A stretch of DNA of 20,000 bases from Chiloscyllium plagiosum (taxonomy: Eukaryota), in assembly GCF_004010195.1 (NCBI RefSeq), contig NC_057756.1, forward strand, positions 5,629,661-5,649,660, read 5' to 3'. The notes beneath the pieces are model-generated. The model saw only the letters and a program-made list of their open reading frames with translations, ran no database searches and was not told the DNA's origin. Every line of letters begins with the position of its first letter. Position 1 is the stretch's first letter. Of this stretch, positions 930 through 20,000 are shown piece after piece. Both the position numbers and the translations under genes were made by a program.

Positions 930-1145
930 CCATTCTTTCCCCCTCTCTCACTGTTTGTCTGTCTTTCTCTCTCTCTTTTTCTCTCTCATTGCCTGTTTCT
1001 CAGCTAGTTCTCACTTTGAACCTCTGCCTATCTCTACCTATTTCTTGCTTTCTCTCTTTAATTGTTAATATGTCTTTTGCTGTCACATTGTCTTTATCTC
1101 TCGATTTCTGTCTCTCTCTCCTCTGACTATTGGCTGTCTCTCAAC
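930..1145. repeat. CT-rich low-complexity / degenerate (CT)n tract
   Basis: Polypyrimidine runs such as TCTCTCTC and CTGTCT. Confidence 0.8.
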
Positions 1146-1230
1146 TGCACCTGACAGAGGGGCTGCGATCTGAAAGCTTGTGATTTCAAATAAACCTATT
1201 GGACTATAAACTGGTGTCTTCTGACTGTTT
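1146..1230 (+). mobile_element. Penelope-like terminal repeat fragment with decayed hammerhead motif
   Basis: CACCTGACAGAGGGGCTGCGATCTGAAAGCTTGTGATTTCAAATAAACC is a close homologue of 18637-18715, with a mutated CTGANGA core. Confidence 0.75.
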
Positions 1231-3440: not shown

Positions 3441-4071
3441 TTTTTTATTAAGTCAAGTCATTTTATCCCAGTGCTGCAGCTTTGGAGAGTGCTATCAACA
3501 GCACTTTTGTTATAGACCCTCTGTTCACTGAATAAACCTGCACATTGCCTAACGTAATGCTGTTTCTGGATGGTTTTGAATTCCCATCACAAGGCAGCAA
3601 TCGGGTAATTGTTTTGTCTACTCTTTTATCTTAATCTATTGAACAGCTCACCACAATAATTTTAAAAATATGCAACGATAGTTCATCATCACCAAGATGC
3701 CACTCAGAGAGGACATCCTCAATGAAACTAAAACCATGCCTTTCACCCTTACTATTAACATACACAGTATAGAAATATAAATCAAACATAAAGCTTTATC
3801 AAAACCTCCACTTTAGAATCCACATTCTCAAACAATAGTAAGACATTATGAAGCTTCGTCACAAGTGCTTCAAATAATATCTGTAAAATGGTACACCTCA
3901 TAAGCTTTTTGCATTCTCTGACAGCATGAAAACGATACAGCACATAAAAAACATGTTCAGAACTAACAACAGAGTTGAGTAATGCCATTTTCTCTTCTTA
4001 ATTATTCAACATATTGGATGCACACATCCCTCTCCCTGCTTCTGTGTCAATTTGGATGGAAGCTGATATCT

Positions 4072-4259
4072 AGGAGAAAGTGAGGACTGCACTTGCTGGA
4101 GATCATAGTCGGGAGTCTGGTGCTGGAAAAAGCACAGCAATTCAGGCAGCATCCGAGGAGCAGGAGAATCAACGTTTCAGGCATAAGCCCTTCCTGATTC
4201 TCCTGCTCCTCAGATGCTGCCTGACCTGCTGTGCTTTTCCGGCACCACACTCTCAACAC
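4072..4259. mobile_element. Short fold-back Penelope-derived element
   Basis: Inverted arms GGTGCTGGAAAAAGCACAGCA..CAGGCAGCATCCGAGGAGCAGGAGAATCA / TGATTCTCCTGCTCCTCAGATGCTGCCTGACCTGCTGTGCTTTTCCGGCACC; imperfect 15-bp flanking direct repeat at 4057-4071 and 4260-4274. Confidence 0.85.
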
Positions 4260-4497
4260 TGGAAGTTGACCTCTGCATATTCTGTGTCTTCACCCCTGTA
4301 CACAAGCCCATCTCTGCTGGGCAGCTTGAGAAGTTGATGTTGGTCGAAAGGAGGCCCTTAGTTCTGTCAGGATTCCCGTGTTGAGCATCTCCTTCCACTG
4401 GACCTTCAAAGACATCCCAGGAACCTGGTGTCTCCCCTTCTCCAACTCTCTTCCTGATTGTGTTCTGAGGGTCAGTGACCACCCTTTTCTGTGAAGC
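4253..4497 (-). pseudogene. Damaged terminal cytoplasmic exon of a Siglec/CD22/MAG-like Ig-superfamily receptor
   Basis: Strong acceptor CCATTTCTCTGCAG| precedes 4497. The exon reads ASQKRVVTDPQNTIRK...RTKGLLSTNINFS, then after a 1-nt frameshift KLPSRDGLVYRGEDTEYAEVNFQC*. TEYAEV fits TxYxxV/I (ITSM / distal Siglec motif); LLSTNINF sits where a proximal ITIM (LxYxxI/L) is expected. Confidence 0.65.
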
Positions 4498-6424: not shown

Positions 6425-6715
6425 CTCACAGGCAGAGGAAGAAGCCCATTCAGCCCCCTCCTCCAGCCTGTTACACAGGAACAAGANNNNNATTCAGCCC
6501 CCCCCCCCCCCCCCCCCAGCCTGTTACACAGGAACAGGATACCATTTGGCTCCTTCCTCAAGCCTGTTACACAGGAACAGGAGGAGGCCATTCAACCCTC
6601 TCCTCGAACCTATGGAATGGGAACAGGAGGAGGCCATTCAGCTCCGTCCTCAAGTCTGTTCCACTTGAGCAGAAGAAGGCCATTCAGCTCCCACCTTGAG
6701 CCTGTTACCCAGGAA
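6425..6715. repeat. ~42-bp tandem array derived from the antisense CR1 3' tail; contains 5 N bases (6487-6491)
   Basis: Repeating ACAGGAACAGGAGGAGGCCATTCAGCCCCCTC..AGCCTGTTAC; further decayed units at about 7685-7830. Confidence 0.85.
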
Positions 6716-6959
6716 TAAATTGGGAAAGGTGATCCACCCAGTGCAAATAAAGGAAATTAACAACAATATTAGATCCAAGGAAGGGTTGAACAAATAGACC
6801 ATAAACAGAGGCAGGATTTGGAGTGGTTTAGGTGGAAGAAGGGATTGATTACAAAGGAAAAAATAAGAGCACGAGAGGAAGAGAAATATAAGTTCTCTAT
6901 AATTAGAAGCAGGGGAATGTATAATGGGGAACAAAGAGACAGCTGACCAATTTTAGTTC

Positions 6960-10030: not shown

Positions 10031-10575
10031 GCTCCTACAGGTCTCCCCACTCCTGTAATGTCTTCCACCCCCTTACCTCTCCCCATTTCTACAATCTTCC
10101 CCCAGTCCCTACACCCCCTCTTTATCTCTGTAATCTCGACAAGCCCTTAGACATTTCACTATCAGTGTCATGTCCAGCAGTCCTTATACATTTCGCTATC
10201 TCTGTAACCGCCTCCAGGCCCTACAACCCCTCCCTATCTCTGTGACTTCTACCAGTCCCAACACCTCCTCCCTATCTCTGTAACCTCCTCCGTCCCCTAT
10301 ACTCCTGCCTATCTATGTAACCTCCTCCAGCCCCTACTCTCCCTCCCTATCTCTGTAACCCCCTCCATCCCCTACAACTCCTCCCTATCTCTGTAACCTC
10401 CTCTAGCCTCTATATCCCTCCCTATACCCCTCTGTGTAATTTGCTGCAGCCCTAACATCTCTCTCTTTAATCTCCTCCAGCCCTCTACCCCTCCTCATCT
10501 CTGTAACATGCTCCAAGCCCTACACCACCGCCCAACCTCACCCCCATTCACCCTGATCTCTGTAACCTTGTCTGA
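10030..10575. repeat. ~37-bp C-rich minisatellite; also at 9560-9645, split by the CR1 insertion
   Basis: Repeating CCCTCCCTATCTCTGTAACCTCCTCCAGCCCCTACA; followed by an L2-like remnant to about 10690. Confidence 0.85.
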
Positions 10576-10729
10576 CTCCCTCGATTTCTCTGCTCCTTCA
10601 TTTCCAGCGTATTCCTGATCCCCCTCATTCCCATTGCTGTGCTATCATCTGCCTAGGCCAAAATCTGTGGAACCCTTCTTCCTGAAACTTGAGCATTAAC
10701 ATTTAGACTTGAACAGGAGAAGCTGCGTT

Positions 10730-11092
10730 AGAGCTGAAAATGTGTTGCTGGAAAAGCGCAGCAGGTCAGGCAGCATCCAAGGAGCAGGAGAATTGACGTT
10801 TCAGGCATGAGCCCGTCTTCAGGAATGAGGAAAGTGTGTCCAGCAGGCTAAGATAAAAGGTAGAGAGGATGGACTTGGGGGAGGGGTGTTGGAAATGCGA
10901 TAGGTGGAAGGAGGTCAAGGTGAGGGTGATACAACCGTCGTGTTGCTATGGTCTGGCGATGGAGGAGTCCAAGGACCTGCATGTCCTTGGTGGAGTGGGA
11001 GGGGGAGTTGAAGTGTTGAGCCACGGGGTGGTTGGGTTGGTTAGTCCAGGTGTCCCAGAGGTGTTCTCTGAAACGTTCCGCAAGTAGGACTC
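10730..11092 (-). mobile_element. Penelope-like element 3' fragment: GIY-YIG endonuclease C-terminal part plus terminal repeat
   Basis: LAERFREHLWDTWTNQPNHPVAQHFNSPSHSTKDMQVLGLL contains the R..EH and VA.HF..H GIY-YIG motifs of PLEs; a hammerhead-containing terminus follows. Confidence 0.9.
10793..10824 (-). ncRNA. Minimal hammerhead ribozyme motif (PLE-associated)
   Basis: C-CUGAAGA-C-GGGC UCAU GCCU-GAAA-CGUC; core intact, stem II closed by a G-U pair. Confidence 0.6.
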
Positions 11093-11114
11093 CTCCATCG
11101 CCAGACCATAGCAT

Positions 11115-11600
11115 ACTTGGCTCATTGTGCTTGTTGTGCTAGCTCATTGGTCATAAGTTCTCACTCTGCAAGTAATTTTCTAACTCGCTTTTTGAAAGTT
11201 CCTGTTGAACCTGTTCTCATTTCCCTTTCAGGCAGCACATCCCAGATCACGATAACTTTGTGTCAAGAAAACACGTTCTCCTGCACTCAACCCCGCCCTT
11301 CCAGCTCTTTCTTTTCCTAATTCTCTTCAATCTATGTCCCTCTGGCAACCTCTGCCTCTGGTAACAGGGACTGCTAGTTGACTCTGTGGAAAGTTCTGGT
11401 GATTTTGAACTCCTCAATTAAATCTCTTCTCTACCTCCCTTTTCTCCAAAAGTCTTCCACATTCAGTAAAGTACTTCATCGCTGGAAACACTCTTGTGAG
11501 TATTTTCCACACCCTCTCTCAAGCCTTTGCTAAAATGTAGTGCCCAGAACTGGACACAATACTCCAGATGAGGCTGAACCAGTGTTTTATAAAATTCATA
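11115..11600 (-). mobile_element. CR1 LINE 3' fragment, decayed
   Basis: GTGCCCAGAACTGGACACAATACTCCAG is the antisense of LEYCVQFWA. Confidence 0.7.
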
Positions 11601-12807: not shown

Positions 12808-13808
12808 ATGGAATCCTCATAGGAGAGGCTGGGGCCATTCAGCCCATCGGGTCTGCACCGGCCATCTGAAGATGGTCACATCCAGATCCACCCCACCCCC
12901 CCCCCTTTTCACCATGGTTAACCCACCCAACCTGCACAGCTCTGAACACTGTGGGACAATTCCCCATGGCCAATCCACACTAACCTGCACATCTATGGAC
13001 TGTAGGAGGAAACCAGAGCACCTGGAGGGAATCACTCGCAGACGCAAGGAGCACGTGCAAACCCCACATCGAGTCATATAGATGTACAGAGCAGAAACCA
13101 ACCCTTTGGTTCAACTCGTCCATGCCAACAAGAAATTCTAAATTAATCTCATCCCATTTGCCAGCATTTGGACCATATCCCTCCAAAACCTTCCTATTCA
13201 TGTCCCCATCCAGATGCCTTTTAAATGTTGTTATTGTACCAGCCTCCACCACTTCCTTTGGCAGCTCATTCCATGCACGTACCACCCTCTGTGTGAAAAC
13301 ATTTGCCCCTTTTGTCCTTTTTAAATCGTTCTCCTCTCACCCTAAACCTATGCTGTATAGTTCTGGACTCCCCTACCCCAGGGGTATGGGTAAATTCTAT
13401 TTACCTTACCCATACCGCTCAAGATTTTATAAACCTCTATTAGGTCACCCCTCAGCCTCCGCCGCTCCAGGGAAAATAGCCCCAGACTGTTCAGTACCTC
13501 CCTGTAGCTCAAACCCTCCAACCTCGGCAACATCCTTGTAAATCCTTTCAAGTTTCATAACATCCTTCCTGTAGCAGGGAGACCAGAATTGAACACAGTA
13601 TTCGAAAAGTGTCCTCATCAATGTCCTGTACAGCTGTAACATGACATCGCAACACCTATACTCAATGAAGGGAAAGCATGTAAAACCCCTTCCCTCTCCT
13701 ACCTACCTACCTGCAACTCCACTTTCAAGCAATGCCTAAGGGTGGAATTGAACCCAGGTCCATGGCGCTGTTGGGCAGTAGTGCTAACCACTGAGCCACC
13801 ACACTGCC
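12808..13808 (-). mobile_element. HE1-type V-SINE split by a nested CR1 (body and tail 12808-13070; head about 13730-13808)
   Basis: Antisense tRNA-like head GGAATTGAACCCAGGTCC..GTGCTAACCACTGAGCCACC..CTGCC, antisense V-domain GGAGGAAACCAGAGCACCTGGAGG, and a CR1-type tail. Confidence 0.85.
13071..13728 (-). mobile_element. CR1 LINE 3' fragment nested in the SINE
   Basis: Minus-strand ORF pieces MLQLYRTLMRTLFEYCVQFWSP, LFSLERRRLRGDLIEVYKI and VRAWNELPKEVVEAGTITTFKRHLD match the CR1 ORF2 C-terminus, with frameshifts. Confidence 0.95.
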
Positions 13809-14980: not shown

Positions 14981-15278
14981 GTAGAATTGCTACAGTGTGG
15001 AGGGAGGCCATTCAGCCTAGCAGGCTGGCTCCTACCCCACCAATGAGCATCCCATCCAGACGCAGCCACCCAGCCCACTCTAACCCCAGCATTTACTATG
15101 GCTAACCCACACATCCCTGGGCACTACAGGGCTATTTATGACCAAACCTGTACATCTTTACACCCACACAGGCACAGGGAGAACGTGCAAATGCCAGACA
15201 GTCACCCAAGGGTGGGATCGAACCTCAGTCCCTGCTGCTGTGAGGCAACAGTGTGATCCACTGAGCCATCATCCTGCC
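14981..15278 (-). mobile_element. HE1-type SINE
   Basis: Antisense head GGGATCGAACCTCAGTCCCTG..CCACTGAGCCATC and a CR1-type tail; the empty site is visible in the paralogue at about 9430-9445. Confidence 0.85.
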
Positions 15279-15345
15279 TCTTTCTTGAGCTCTGATTGGG
15301 AACTAATTCAGCAGGGAGCTGGGTTCCAGACTCCTCCTAACTTTA

Positions 15346-15545
15346 GGAGATAATGAGAACTGCAGATACTGGAGATTAGAGTCGGGAGTGTGGTGCTGGA
15401 AAAGCACAGTAGGTCAGGTAGCATCTGAGGAACAAGAGAATCAACGTTTCAGGTAAGAGCCCTTTGTCAGGAATGAGGCTGTGAGATGAAGGGGTGGAGA
15501 GATTAATGAGTGGGGGGCTGGGGGAAAGGTACCTGAGAGTGTGAA
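15346..15545 (-). mobile_element. Penelope-like terminal repeat fragment with decayed hammerhead
   Basis: GTGGTGCTGGAAAAGCACAGTAGGTCAGG..CGTTTCAGGTAAGAGCCCTTTGTCAGG; the core reads CUGACAA on the minus strand. Confidence 0.85.
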
Positions 15546-15980: not shown

Positions 15981-18240
15981 ATGGAGACTAGGGCAGTTGC
16001 ATGCTCCTCTTGCAGGATGTGGGAGGGAAGGGTCACCATTGGTGTTCCTACTGACTGTATCTGCTCCTCACTGACTGCGTTAGGGAGCTGGAACTGGAGC
16101 TGGGTGAACTTCAAATTATTCAGGAGGCTGAGGGGGTGATAGAGAGGGGTTATAGGGAGGTAGTCACATCTAAGTTACAGGACAAAGGTGGCTGGATGAC
16201 CGTCAGGAGAGTAAAAGGGAATAGGCAGACAGCGCAGGGACCCCCTGTGGCTGTTCCTCTCAATAATAAGTACACCACTTTGGATATTGTTGGTGGGTGC
16301 GACCTACCAGGGGAAAGCCACAGTGGCCCAGCCTCTGGCACTGAGCCTGGTTCTGTGGCTCAAAAGGGAAGGGGGAGAATAGGAGATCGATAGTGAGAGG
16401 AGATTCAATGGTGAGAGGAACAGACAGGAGATTCTGTGGACGCGGACAACACTCCCGGGTGGCATGTTGCCTCCCGGGTGCCAGGGTCAGCAATATCTCG
16501 GATCAAGTCCACAGGATTCTTAAGAGGGTGGAGAGCAGCCAGAAGTCATGGTACACATTGGTACCGATGAGATAAGCAGGGAAAGGGAGGAGGACCTGAA
16601 AAGTTAATATAGGGAGTTAGCTGGGAAGCTAAAAGGCAGGGCGCGCACAGTAATAATCTCAGAATTGTTACCGGTGCTACAGGCTAATGAGGTTAGGGAC
16701 AGAGAGTGAGTGCAGCTGAACTCATGGCTGCAGGGCTGATGTAGGAGGAAGGGCTTCAGACATGTGGATCATTGGGATACCTTCTGGGGAAGGTGGGTCC
16801 TGTACAGGGAGGATGGGTTGCATCTGAACTGGAGGGGCGCTGATACCCATGAGCGAGAGGCTTGCTACAGCGCTTCAGGAGGGTTTCAACAAGTTTGGCT
16901 GGGATATGGGAACCAGAACAGTGGATCAGAGGATGGGGTAGCTGGTGAACAGGCAGGTACAACGTGCAGAGAGTCTGTGAGGAAGGATAGACAGTTGTTA
17001 GGGCAAAGGTGCAGTCCGTGTGACAGGTTGGAGTGTGTCTATTGAAACACAAGAAGTATCAGGAGTAAGGGTGATGAACTTAGAGCATGGATCAATACTT
17101 GGAGCTACGAAGTTGTGGCCACTATGAAGATTTGGATGTCACAGGGCAGGGATGGTTGTTGGATGTTCCAGGGTTTAGATGTTTCAGAAGGAATGGGGGG
17201 AGGTGAAAGAGTGGTATTGCTAATCAGGAATAGCTGCAGAAAGGGGGGTTGTTGAGGAGGGTTTGTCTACAGAGTCAGTATGGGTGGAAGTCAGAAACAG
17301 AAAAGGAGCAGTCACCTTATTGTGAGTTTTCTATAGACCCCCCAATAGCAACAGAGACACGGGGGAGCAGATTGGGAGGCAGATTTTGGGAAGGTGCAGA
17401 AATAACAGGGTTGTTGTCATGGGTGACTTTAACCTCCTTAATCTTGATTGGAACCTCCTTAGTTCAAATAGTTTGGATGGAGCCGATTTTGTCCGGTGTG
17501 TCCAGAAAGGATTCCTGACTTAATATGTAGATAGGCCAACTAGAGGGGAGGCCATATTGGATTTGGTGCTTGGCAACGAACCAGGTCAGGTGTCAGATCT
17601 CTTGGTGGCAGAGCATTTCAGCGAGTGATCACAACTCCCTGATTTTACTATACTCATGGGGAGGGATAGGAGCAGATGATATGGGAAAGTATTTAACTGG
17701 GAGAGGACAAATTCCGATGCTATTACGCAGGAACTGTGGAGCATAAATTGGAACAGATGTTCTCAGGGAAATGCACATCAGAAATGTGGAAGTTGTTTCG
17801 GGAGCACTTGCTGCGGGTGCTGGATATTTTTGGAGGCAAGGAAGGGATGGTAGGGTGAAGGAACTTTGGATGACAACAGATGTGGAACATCTATTCATGA
17901 GGAAGAAGGAAGCTTACTTTTGGTTGAGGAAGCAAGGATCAGACAGGGTTCTAGAAGGTTACAAGGTAGCCAGGAAGGAACTGAGAAATGGACTTCGGAG
18001 AGCTAGAAGGGGACATGAAAAAGCCTTGGCAGATAGGATTAAGGAAATCCCCAAGACGTTCTACACTTGTGAGGGATAAGGAGATGGCCAGAGTGAGGGA
18101 AGGCCTGATCTGGGATAGTGGAGAGAATTTCTGCCTGGAGTTGGAGGAGGTAGGGGAGGTCCTTAATGAATTTTGCTTCAGTATTCACTCATTTCTGAGG
18201 ACAGCATGAAACAGGCTGATACGATCAAACAGGTTGATGG
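15981..18240 (+). mobile_element. CR1 LINE 5' part: ORF1 (Cys-rich N-terminus plus SGNH/GDSL esterase) and ORF2 AP-endonuclease; decayed, RT missing
   Basis: METRAVACSSCRMWE at 15981; GDSMVRG..CLPGARV at about 16399; endonuclease motifs GDFN (17422-17433), LDLVL and SDH (17624-17632); many stops and frameshifts; similarity ends near 18240. Confidence 0.9.
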
Positions 18241-18519
18241 TAAGTGAAAGTCTGGAAGACCAGGTGAGCTGGCTAGGGAGCAGCTCCTCATTGCCAAGAT
18301 TAAAACCTCCCATTTTGCAAAAGCAAGACAAGTTCTTTTCTACGTGTTCCTGCAGTCCTACAACCTTGGTGTCAGGTTCCTCAGTGTCCCCCCCCAACAA
18401 CCCTGCCTGCTGCCCCTGTGTTTCACTTGTTCATATCAATGAAGTCATGAATCTCAAGGCCATGTGGGTTCTCTCCTGCCTGAGGCTGAGCTGGTGCCTA
18501 ATCTTCTCAGTGGCCATGA

Positions 18520-18725
18520 TGTGGAGGTGCTGGTGTTGGACTGGGATGGACAAAGTCAGAGATCACAACAACAGCAGGTTACAGTCTAACAAGGTTATAT
18601 GAAATCACCAACTTTCAGAGCACTACCCCTTCACTGCACCTGATGAAGGAGCAGCACTCCGAAAGCTTGTGATTTCAAATAAACCTGTTGGTCTATAACC
18701 TGGTGTCATGTGACTTCTGCCTTCA
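18520..18725. mobile_element. Palindromic Penelope-derived non-autonomous element
   Basis: 18555-18633 is an imperfect inverted copy of 18640-18720. Confidence 0.85.
18637..18671 (+). ncRNA. Minimal type-I hammerhead ribozyme motif
   Basis: CAC-CUGAUGA-A-GGAG CAGCA CUCC-GAAA-GCUU-GUG: intact core, 4-bp stem II, CAC/GUG stem I and palindromic AAGCUU helix III. Confidence 0.75.
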
Positions 18726-18816
18726 ATCTTCTGGGGGCCAGTGACCCGGGAAGTTTTTCTCACTCTGTGCCAACTGCAGAGAGGTGGCAGTGAAACGCTC
18801 AGCAGCATATGCACTC

Positions 18817-18995
18817 ATAGAGACGTTGAAAACTGGAGCAGGAGCTCGCTCTGCCATTTAATATGATCACAGCTGACCGACCAACTCAGTCCCCATACCC
18901 TTTGTTCCTTTTATCTCCAAGAACTACCACGAACTCCTTCTCGAAAACATTCAATGTTTTGGCCTCGACCGCAAACTGTGACAGACAATTCCACC
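18817..18995 (-). mobile_element. CR1 3' tail remnant
   Basis: CTCTGCCATTTAATATGATCACAGCTGA..CCCCATACCCTTTG..CATTCAATGTTTTGGCCTC. Confidence 0.7.
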
Positions 18996-19074
18996 AGCTC
19001 CCCCATTCACTGCCTCAGCCCCAAATGGTTTTACCACCTCCCCTGGGGGGACCTGAGTATGGACCTGACAAGGG

Positions 19075-19556
19075 AGTCATGAAGGGAATAGTCTTTACGT
19101 AAAGTGGATAGGGGTGGAGAGGGAAATATGTCTCTGGTGGTGGGTCCATTTGTAGGTGGTGGAAATGGCGGAGGATGGTGCAATGTATATGGAGGCTGGT
19201 GGGGTGAAAGGTGAGGACAAGGGGTGGGGTTTCAGTCCTTGTTGCGGTTGATGGGGTAGGGTTCGAGGGCTTACGTGTGGGAAGTGGATGAGATGCGCTG
19301 AAGGGCATCATCGACCATGTGGGAAGAGAAATTATGGTCCTTGAAAAAGGAGGCCAACTGGTGTGTTCTGTGGCGGAACTGGTCTTCCTAGGAGCAGATG
19401 CAGTGGAGGCAGAGGAATTGGGAATAAGGGATACAGGAGGCAGGGTGGGAGTCATTGGGTTTTTAGAAGATGTCCATGCTGAGTCGGTCACTGTTGACGG
19501 AGATGGAGAGGTTCAGGAGGTGGAGGGAGGTGTCTGAGATGGACCAGGTGAATTTA
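19075..19556 (-). mobile_element. Penelope-like element, RT C-terminal/linker region
   Basis: Minus-strand frames give IPYSQFL, FFKDHNF and PPLVLTFHPTSLHIHCTILRHFHHLQMDP, typical of the vertebrate PLE ORF between RT and GIY-YIG. Confidence 0.85.
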
Positions 19557-19559
19557 AGT

Positions 19560-20000
19560 TCTGGATCAGTGGTGCTGGAAGAGCACAGCAATTCAGGCAG
19601 CATCCGACGAGCAGCAAAATCGACGTTTCGGGCAAAATCCCTTCATCAGGAATAAAGGCAGAGAGCCTGAAGCGTGGAGAGATAAGCTAGAGGAGGGTGG
19701 GGGTGGGGAGAAAGTAGCATAGAGTACAATAGGTGAGTGGGGGAGGAGATGATAGGTCAGGGAGCAGAGGGTGGAGTGGATAGGTGGAAAAGGAGCTAGG
19801 CAGGTCGGACAGGTCCAGGGGACAGTGCGGAGCTGGAAGTTTGAAACTAGGATGAGGTGGGGGAAGGGGAAATGAGGAAGCTGTTGAAGTCCACATTGAT
19901 GCCCTGGGGTTGAAGTGTTCCGAGGCGGAAGATGAGGCGTTCTTCCTCCAGGCATCTGGTGGTGAGGGAGCAGCGGTGAAGGAGGCCCAGGACCTCCACA
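19560..20000 (-). mobile_element. Penelope-like element 3' end (GIY-YIG C-terminus, 3' UTR, terminal repeat); continues beyond the window
   Basis: Minus strand EVLGLLHRCSLTTRCLEEERLIFRLGTLQPQGINVDFNSFL (conserved E and G.N of GIY-YIG), then a pyrimidine-rich UTR and a hammerhead terminus. Confidence 0.9.
19620..19652 (-). ncRNA. Minimal hammerhead ribozyme motif in PLE terminal repeat
   Basis: UUC-CUGAUGA-A-GGG AUUUUG CCC-GAAA-CGUC-GA: intact core, GUC cleavage triplet and palindromic ACGU helix III. Confidence 0.75.

Follow-up and report, generated by a model that had tools for sequence, protein, structure and literature searches.

A minimal hammerhead ribozyme motif within a palindromic 204-bp element of Chiloscyllium plagiosum, probably a decayed insertion of a Penelope-like element end

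What kind of element places a hammerhead ribozyme motif between two inverted arms, and does the ribozyme still act there? This question is raised by a locus of Chiloscyllium plagiosum, which we studied within a window of 20,000 nucleotides (contig NC_057756.1, positions 5,629,661 to 5,649,660; positions below are those of the window). An initial annotation had described the locus as a protein-free, retrozyme- or MITE-like unit mobilized by the machinery of Penelope-like elements (PLEs). Very probably, it is instead a decayed, ORF-less pLTR insertion of an endonuclease-bearing PLE, in which a single event left two 5'-truncated cDNAs head to head within a duplication of about 22 bp.

The ribozyme motif was searched with a strict descriptor, consisting of CTGANGA, zero or one extra base, a stem II of at least 3 bp, GAAA, a loop-less helix III, H17 and a stem I of at least 3 bp. 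A minimal type I hammerhead is found on the plus strand at 18637-18671, where the initial annotation had placed it, with every piece at its coordinates. Stem I (3 bp) is formed by 18637-18639 and 18669-18671 and encloses the CTGATGA core (18640-18646), an extra A between A9 and G10.1 (18647), a perfect stem II of 4 bp (18648-18651 with 18657-18660), GAAA (18661-18664) and GCTT (18665-18668), H17 being 18668. Cleavage of the plus-strand RNA is predicted after 18668 (CUU). This is the sole strict match in the window on both strands (at 18640), a result unchanged with one core mismatch permitted, and 150 dinucleotide-shuffled versions of the window yielded two matches in total. Rfam reported no hammerhead family among its 15 matches to the window at an E-value of at most 5; these comprised 13 miRNA-type hairpin models, IRE_II and SNORD38, every one under its gathering score. 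A miRNA precursor was rejected, as the matches to hairpin models follow from the palindrome.

The proposal that this is a PLE-type hammerhead was borne out. The core positions C3-A9, G12-A15.1, U16.1 and H17 all conform to that type, the G10.1-C11.1 pair corresponds to G18648-C18660, the extra nucleotide to A18647, and the palindromic positions 15.2-16.2, without loop 3, to 18664-18667. In the available text of Cervera and de la Pena (2014; PMC4209133), the minimal hammerheads of PLEs are likewise of type I, devoid of loop 3 and palindromic at 15.2-16.2, with an extra nucleotide between 9 and 10.1 and a G10.1-C11.1 pair, and they occur, as here, in thousands of mostly solo copies. Those of Schistosoma have longer stems (7-8 bp for stem II, 4-5 bp for stem I) than the present copy, with 4 bp in stem II (5 in the family majority) and 3 bp in stem I (PMC4209133). 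The host lineage was not found in the accessible part of supplement file 2 of the same paper. Helix III had been given as AAGCTT, which is indeed a loop-less palindrome, but helix III proper spans only the 4 nt at 18664-18667; of the two outermost letters of AAGCTT, the first is core A14 and the last is the base at the cleavage site, which is A in 39-47% of family depth.

The extent of the element was delimited by aligning runs to 18380-18860 at 80% likeness, namely contigs of X1 and X2 (organism A) and X9 (organism B) and raw RNA reads of X21; in the three contig runs, 26,845, 35,038 and 45,743 contigs were aligned. A palindromic element of about 170 bp starting at 18555 had been proposed; its inverted arms are real (18571-18633 and 18644-18706, 78% alike), but the element extends over 18516-18719, i.e., 204 bp, family depth and loose ends reaching 18516/17 on the left and 18713-18719 on the right. 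From the left, a 38-nt tail that is unique to the left arm (18516-18553, minus strand), where the DNA runs show high depth of the family as well as loose ends at 18516/17, is followed by an inverted 5'-truncated arm (18554-18633, minus strand). Next to a 2-4-nt overlap at the inversion junction (18630-18633, pairing with 18644-18647) lies a 10-nt unpaired centre (18634-18643, plus strand), which holds the 5' strand of stem I and the CUGA of the ribozyme. The forward arm (18632-18719, plus strand) is 5'-truncated as well and has no tail; family loose ends lie behind 18713 and 18719, and it carries AATAAA, a candidate poly(A) signal, at 18678-18683 (plus strand). Tail depth amounts to 0.41-0.42 of core depth in the DNA contig runs, and the family has two preferred 3' ends, 38 nt apart.

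Both arms are bracketed as one unit by a decayed target-site duplication of about 22 bp, the left copy of which (18495-18516, plus strand) matches the right one (18718-18740, plus strand) in 19 of 24 columns. The match was first spotted by eye, and its score was equalled by 34 of 20,000 random window pairs and at none of 20,000 places for this flank. Since duplication, tail, inverted arm, forward arm and duplication follow each other in order, the 204-bp unit was inserted by one event. A contig of organism B covering 18694-18860 with 5 differences suggests that the insertion is present in that organism, just 26 of its letters lying inside the element (threshold 31). The left flank (18380-18447) has zero depth in all four runs, the left junction being seen in the window sequence only.

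The same plan recurs elsewhere in the window, where a second hammerhead family (A; the family of 18637 is hereafter B) forms palindromes at 2327-2491 and 4072-4260, each with a one-sided tail, a flanking repeat and a centre that is broken in its own way close to the 5' edge of the core. In the first of them (2321-2502), which contains one hammerhead with a clipped core, a 33-nt tail is confined to the right side; the flanking repeat is an exact 13-bp match that overlaps the arm end and is expected by chance in about 3% of cases in a scored test. The second (4057-4274) has its tail on the left only, a short arm that starts at or beside the predicted cut site and a flanking repeat of 12/15, also at about 3% by chance. 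The three palindromes of the window have three different centres. As for family B, the solo decayed copy noticed initially at 1148-1182 is real and spans 1144-1226 (plus strand), 84% alike, with a core broken by two mismatches, no tail and no clear duplication. The 5' ends at the three palindrome junctions and that of this solo copy fit a position 8-12 nt upstream of the core, but three family A copies of the window start farther upstream.

Another hammerhead of family A (19654-19617, minus strand), with an intact core, sits behind the end of an ORF in the region 19617-20000. Seventeen relatives of this ORF end were found, and one of them, P0015 (E 2.5e-4, 63%), shows VIY...YIG, which we take to be the GIY-YIG endonuclease of a PLE; a broken ORF piece at 19040-19519 presumably corresponds to a PLE reverse transcriptase thumb, which it resembles. 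Pfam recognized no reverse transcriptase or GIY-YIG family in the ORF pieces of the window or in the 17 relatives, a protein atlas gave only matches under 0.9, a homologue search gave none, and no reverse transcriptase or endonuclease ORF of family B was found in the window. The putative PLE origin of the element is therefore argued from its architecture and by analogy with family A, whose ORF is without Pfam match. Further ends of family A occur at 10728-11140 and 15344-15478 (minus strand), the former behind an endonuclease-like ORF piece with a perfect 27-bp inverted pair (10944-10970 and 11087-11113).

The centre of the element shows how its two arms met. The left half had been regarded as a decayed inverted copy of the hammerhead, and the head-to-head arrangement as having originally placed a ribozyme on each strand. 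The inverted arm is genuine, but it is not a whole hammerhead, for it starts at core position N7, has neither CUGA nor stem I, reads GCAGTGA in place of CTGANGA (4 mismatches) and has G as H17. Moreover, the arms pair outward from 18633/18644 and the 10 nt left unpaired carry stem I and CUGA for the plus strand only, so that there is no second ribozyme and room for one requires an assumed deletion; the idea of a ribozyme on each strand is thus unsupported by this copy. Several family contigs align natively as far as 18629-18631, and the overlap at 18630-18633 may have served as microhomology at the junction.

Such a deletion is the substance of a first alternative, according to which the insertion began with two complete hammerheads, one per strand, and later lost the minus-strand core at the hairpin tip. 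Hairpin tips are prone to deletion, the overlap at the junction is short, and the centres of family A can also be read as deleted between short repeats. In Schistosoma, minimal hammerheads are found in opposite-strand pairs 100-700 bp apart, according to the accessible text of PMC4209133. We nevertheless consider this course rather unlikely, as no allele or orthologue with a longer centre was seen and 5' truncation near the core accounts for the centre without an extra step; it would alter the history of the centre, not the class of the element.

Family B counts thousands to hundreds of thousands of copies, as judged from a depth ratio and not from copy number: summed core depth is 2-3e5 times that of the flank, or 6e3-1e4 times after a crude division by 31 for overlap. 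The centre is common to about 1% or less of this depth, a rough bound as the decayed left arm draws few reads; relative to the neighbouring bin, the bin over the centre has a depth of 0.52-0.53%, and position 18636 reaches 1.2-1.4% of core depth. Loose ends before 18637/38 most often lead into other upstream sequences, with a low agreement of 0.35-0.41 in the contig runs, and not into an inverted arm. Record 19 of X9 (18603-18719, 83%, 20 other letters, no gap) spans the centre in the same register, so that a second palindrome with a like junction exists, among the 24 of 111,266 pieces and 15 of 424 joints listed; record 18 spans the centre with 5 gaps.

These two X9 records favour the view that the palindrome is a non-autonomous, retrozyme- or MITE-like unit copied whole by PLE proteins, which can mobilize pLTR-bounded sequences in trans (PMC3846280, available text). 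Against this, the centre is so rare in the family, the commonest loose ends lack the inverted arm, the three palindromes of the window differ in their centres, no tandem is present and the hairpin blocks the ribozyme, all of which makes copying of the whole unit very unlikely. As far as the accessible parts of two sources go (PMC7229834; bioRxiv 10.64898/2026.07.22.740005), an element qualifies as a retrozyme if it is a tandem in which two or more units carry a complete motif. According to the same texts, animal non-LTR retrozymes resemble the present element in being non-coding, derived from PLE pLTRs, dependent on PLE protein and equipped with a type I hammerhead, whereas 18516-18719 is not a head-to-tail tandem and carries one core only, in a minimal and not a canonical motif. 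No tandem was found in 17500-20000 except one 10-bp dimer. The element shares with MITEs its short, non-coding and hairpin-forming nature and its high copy number. MITEs are uniform units with terminal inverted repeats, a shared interior and a short duplication, whereas here unequal arms derived from a retroelement end meet at 5' breaks, the duplication is long and the centre is not common to the family. The initial proposal hence stands as to the lack of protein and the PLE machinery, but a self-standing retrozyme or MITE unit is unsupported because of the absence of a tandem, the unequal arms, the one-sided tail, the duplication of about 22 bp and the rarity of the centre.

Insertion of a PLE end, the reading that we prefer, has close precedents. 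In the available parts of Craig et al. (PMC8557442), PLE insertions often include an inverted 5'-truncated copy adjoining the 5' end, as well as a tail of 30-40 bp that is frequently restricted to one end. Arkhipova et al. described inverted pLTRs with an optional 31-bp tail, a 15-bp overlap and 8-10-bp duplications, head-to-head being the most frequent arrangement (PMC3846280, available text). An inverted 5'-truncated copy at the 5' end, a one-sided tail of 38 nt and a flanking duplication are what 18516-18719 displays. Its head-to-head arms, junction overlap, one-end tail and flanking duplication are those of complex insertions of EN+ PLEs, as described in the accessible text of three papers (PMC3846280; PMC8557442; PMC11167929), but its arms enclose neither an ORF nor a second direct pLTR, and its duplication of about 22 bp exceeds the 8-10 bp of rotifer PLEs (PMC3846280). 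The element is a decayed example of an already published PLE insertion pattern.

Frangieh et al. showed for an anole PLE that its protein both cuts and extends the two strands and that a pair of internal start sites bounds the tail (PMC11167929, available text). By the same scheme, the PLE protein would have nicked both target strands here, and copying would have begun at two internal start sites delimiting the tail, as in the anole element (PMC11167929). Both copies may then have halted near the 5' edge of the hammerhead and been joined through the 2-4-nt overlap; they may represent two primed cDNAs or a single one that folded back. The hammerhead is presumably inherited from the source element. 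Occurring in bulk, such stubs offer junctions and paired ends that can test how PLEs make inverted copies, a step that the literature, in the parts available, calls undefined.

A different role of the ribozyme in this process can be imagined, in which the palindromic helix III mainly dimerizes two template RNAs, and a protein dimer primes two cDNAs per site, giving head-to-head pairs. Helix III is palindromic in 7 of 8 window copies despite letters that are specific to each family (AGCT, ACGT), and models show the anole protein, by which both strands are cut and extended, as a dimer (PMC11167929, available text). Yet inverted insertions are also made by Naiad elements, which have no canonical hammerhead (PMC8557442, available text), mutants of the catalytic core left insertion in vitro unaffected (PMC11167929, available text), and the finding that both arms are of the same subfamily type does not discriminate template dimerization from fold-back; we regard it as quite improbable. 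As a separate observation, the equivalent of 18650 is G in the left arm and the solo copy and A in the right arm, a G-U pair keeping stem II, and a rare G at 18636 is common to the right arm and the solo copy; this pattern could mark two different templates or recurrent change.

Does the ribozyme still act? Secondary-structure prediction without protein gave, for the isolated 35-mer, stems I and II forming at 0.85-0.97 and a fully open hammerhead fold at 0.15, a value that fell to 9e-4 for 59 nt and to 4e-15 for RNA of both arms. In the latter, the hammerhead fold lies 20.5 kcal/mol above the long hairpin (z = -4.6 for the hairpin), and RNA read through both arms would form a hairpin burying the ribozyme. 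When two 35-mers were cofolded, the best fold had -16.5 kcal/mol, vs. -13.1 kcal/mol for stems II plus a trans helix III, stem I not being scorable. Head-to-head copies lie on opposite strands, and probably belong to different transcripts, leaving no dimer partner in cis. The hammerhead at this locus lacks a tandem partner and would be sequestered in a hairpin whenever RNA covers both arms; as far as such models predict, it is most likely idle. That of the source element probably cleaves only as a dimer or with help of the PLE protein. The anole hammerhead cleaves only with protein and is dispensable for insertion in vitro (PMC11167929, available text), and of nine Xenopus dimers tested one cleaved, in the accessible part of the source.

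The variants found at 8% or more among those listed fall, inside the motif, in loop II (18653, 18655 and 18656), C11.1, H17 and the distal base of stem I. At C11.1, which is part of a CpG, C>T reaches 25-27% and a G-U pair is retained; at H17, T>A stands at the 39-47% given above, both bases being allowed; and the distal stem I base varies in 10-24%. None of the A>G, T>C and T>A variants, all of which are listed for X1 and X2, falls in the core, clipping affecting the positions near 18640. A two-sided stem change within the family was not seen among the variants listed (21 further ones being outside the list), and in a comparison of families A and B, the stems and helix III still pair in spite of their different sequences. 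This pattern of sequence variation is compatible with constraint on the source elements. The 21-nt family motif was found at no viral locus; a single metagenome locus carries it with flanks unlike the family and was dismissed as chance. Among 8 hammerhead copies in the window, the CpG at C11.1-G12 reads TG in 5, CG in 3 and CA in none (p 0.06), and family reads show the above C>T at C11.1 with G>A at G12 absent among the variants listed; a bias against loss of G12 is possible.

Preservation of the core might also be ascribed to selection for a host function, e.g., cleavage of a host RNA immediately upstream of a poly(A) signal. Indeed, the core is intact here and broken in the sister arm and the solo copy, and AATAAA lies 10 nt past the predicted cut, with a precedent in Clec2 3' UTRs (PMC6765202, available text). 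Clec2 hammerheads similarly have their cut site just upstream of a poly(A) signal, but the Clec2 ribozyme is discontinuous, domesticated and active, whereas here the motif is minimal and transposon-borne and its cut is predicted (PMC6765202). However, the computed chance that a copy diverged by 6-10% retains all 27 key positions is 6-19%, and the core, the extra A and the core-proximal part of stem I are together preserved in 2 of 8 window copies, so that an intact core is expected by chance and requires no selection. Furthermore, the copy departs from the family majority at two positions, namely 18656, where the majority G (61-77%) would give stem II a fifth pair, and 18636, where the majority T (88-89% of the few contigs reaching there) would give stem I a fourth, and it has lost both pairs. 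Its predicted fold in context is poor, and RNA depth in its unique flanks is nil in the about 2% of the X21 run that was read. A host function is accordingly extremely improbable.

X21 is a poly(A) single-cell library, of which about 2% was read, and provides a view on the RNA of the family. Of the 3,150 reads aligned, 31 were at least 99% alike and 2,452 under 90%; given this low identity and the absence of reads over the unique flanks, the X21 reads come mostly from other copies. Core depth was oriented as hammerhead-sense RNA for 88%, and it was even across 18668/69 with no start or end pile-up listed, in a type of library that could not reveal cleavage ends. An A-run followed 18695 in 446 reads and 18698 in 636, i.e., in 1,082 of the 3,150 family reads, although family DNA is not A-rich at 18695-18698. 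These A-runs begin 12-15 nt past AATAAA and ahead of a GU-rich stretch, and 281 more X21 reads of a variant with ATTAAA end likewise. A hexamer AATAAA, a spacing of 12-15 nt and a GU-rich region downstream constitute the canonical poly(A) geometry. Thus, some copies of the family are probably polyadenylated behind AATAAA, the alternative being that such reads were primed from A-runs adjacent to truncated copies.

A poly(A) signal in PLE pLTRs was not found reported in the literature covered, including the available parts of PMC2377424 and PMC11167929, most subscription journals, Repbase and Dfam being outside this scope, and the use of the family end for polyadenylation is the only part of the present analysis that may be new. 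If confirmed, this use would give the PLE cycle a further step of RNA processing and host genes a large supply of alternative 3' ends. More tentatively, and with a likelihood well below even, the end of this PLE family could act as a compact switch of RNA 3' ends, combining a cut site, a working AAUAAA with its GU-rich element and two start sites for reverse transcription. Polyadenylation would then yield RNA without the start sites, fit as message only, and read-through a template; the poly(A) tail would be removed when the ribozyme cleaves. Were this true, tens of thousands of dispersed stubs would offer poly(A) sites to host transcripts, with a latent ribozyme in front.

Other repeats occur in the window. 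Tandem arrays lie at 10099-10539 (units of about 38 bp) and 6440-6720 (about 46 bp), the latter containing the only N run of the window (6487-6491), and two related 74-bp pieces at 13735-13808 and 15205-15278 look to us like the head of a tRNA-derived SINE.
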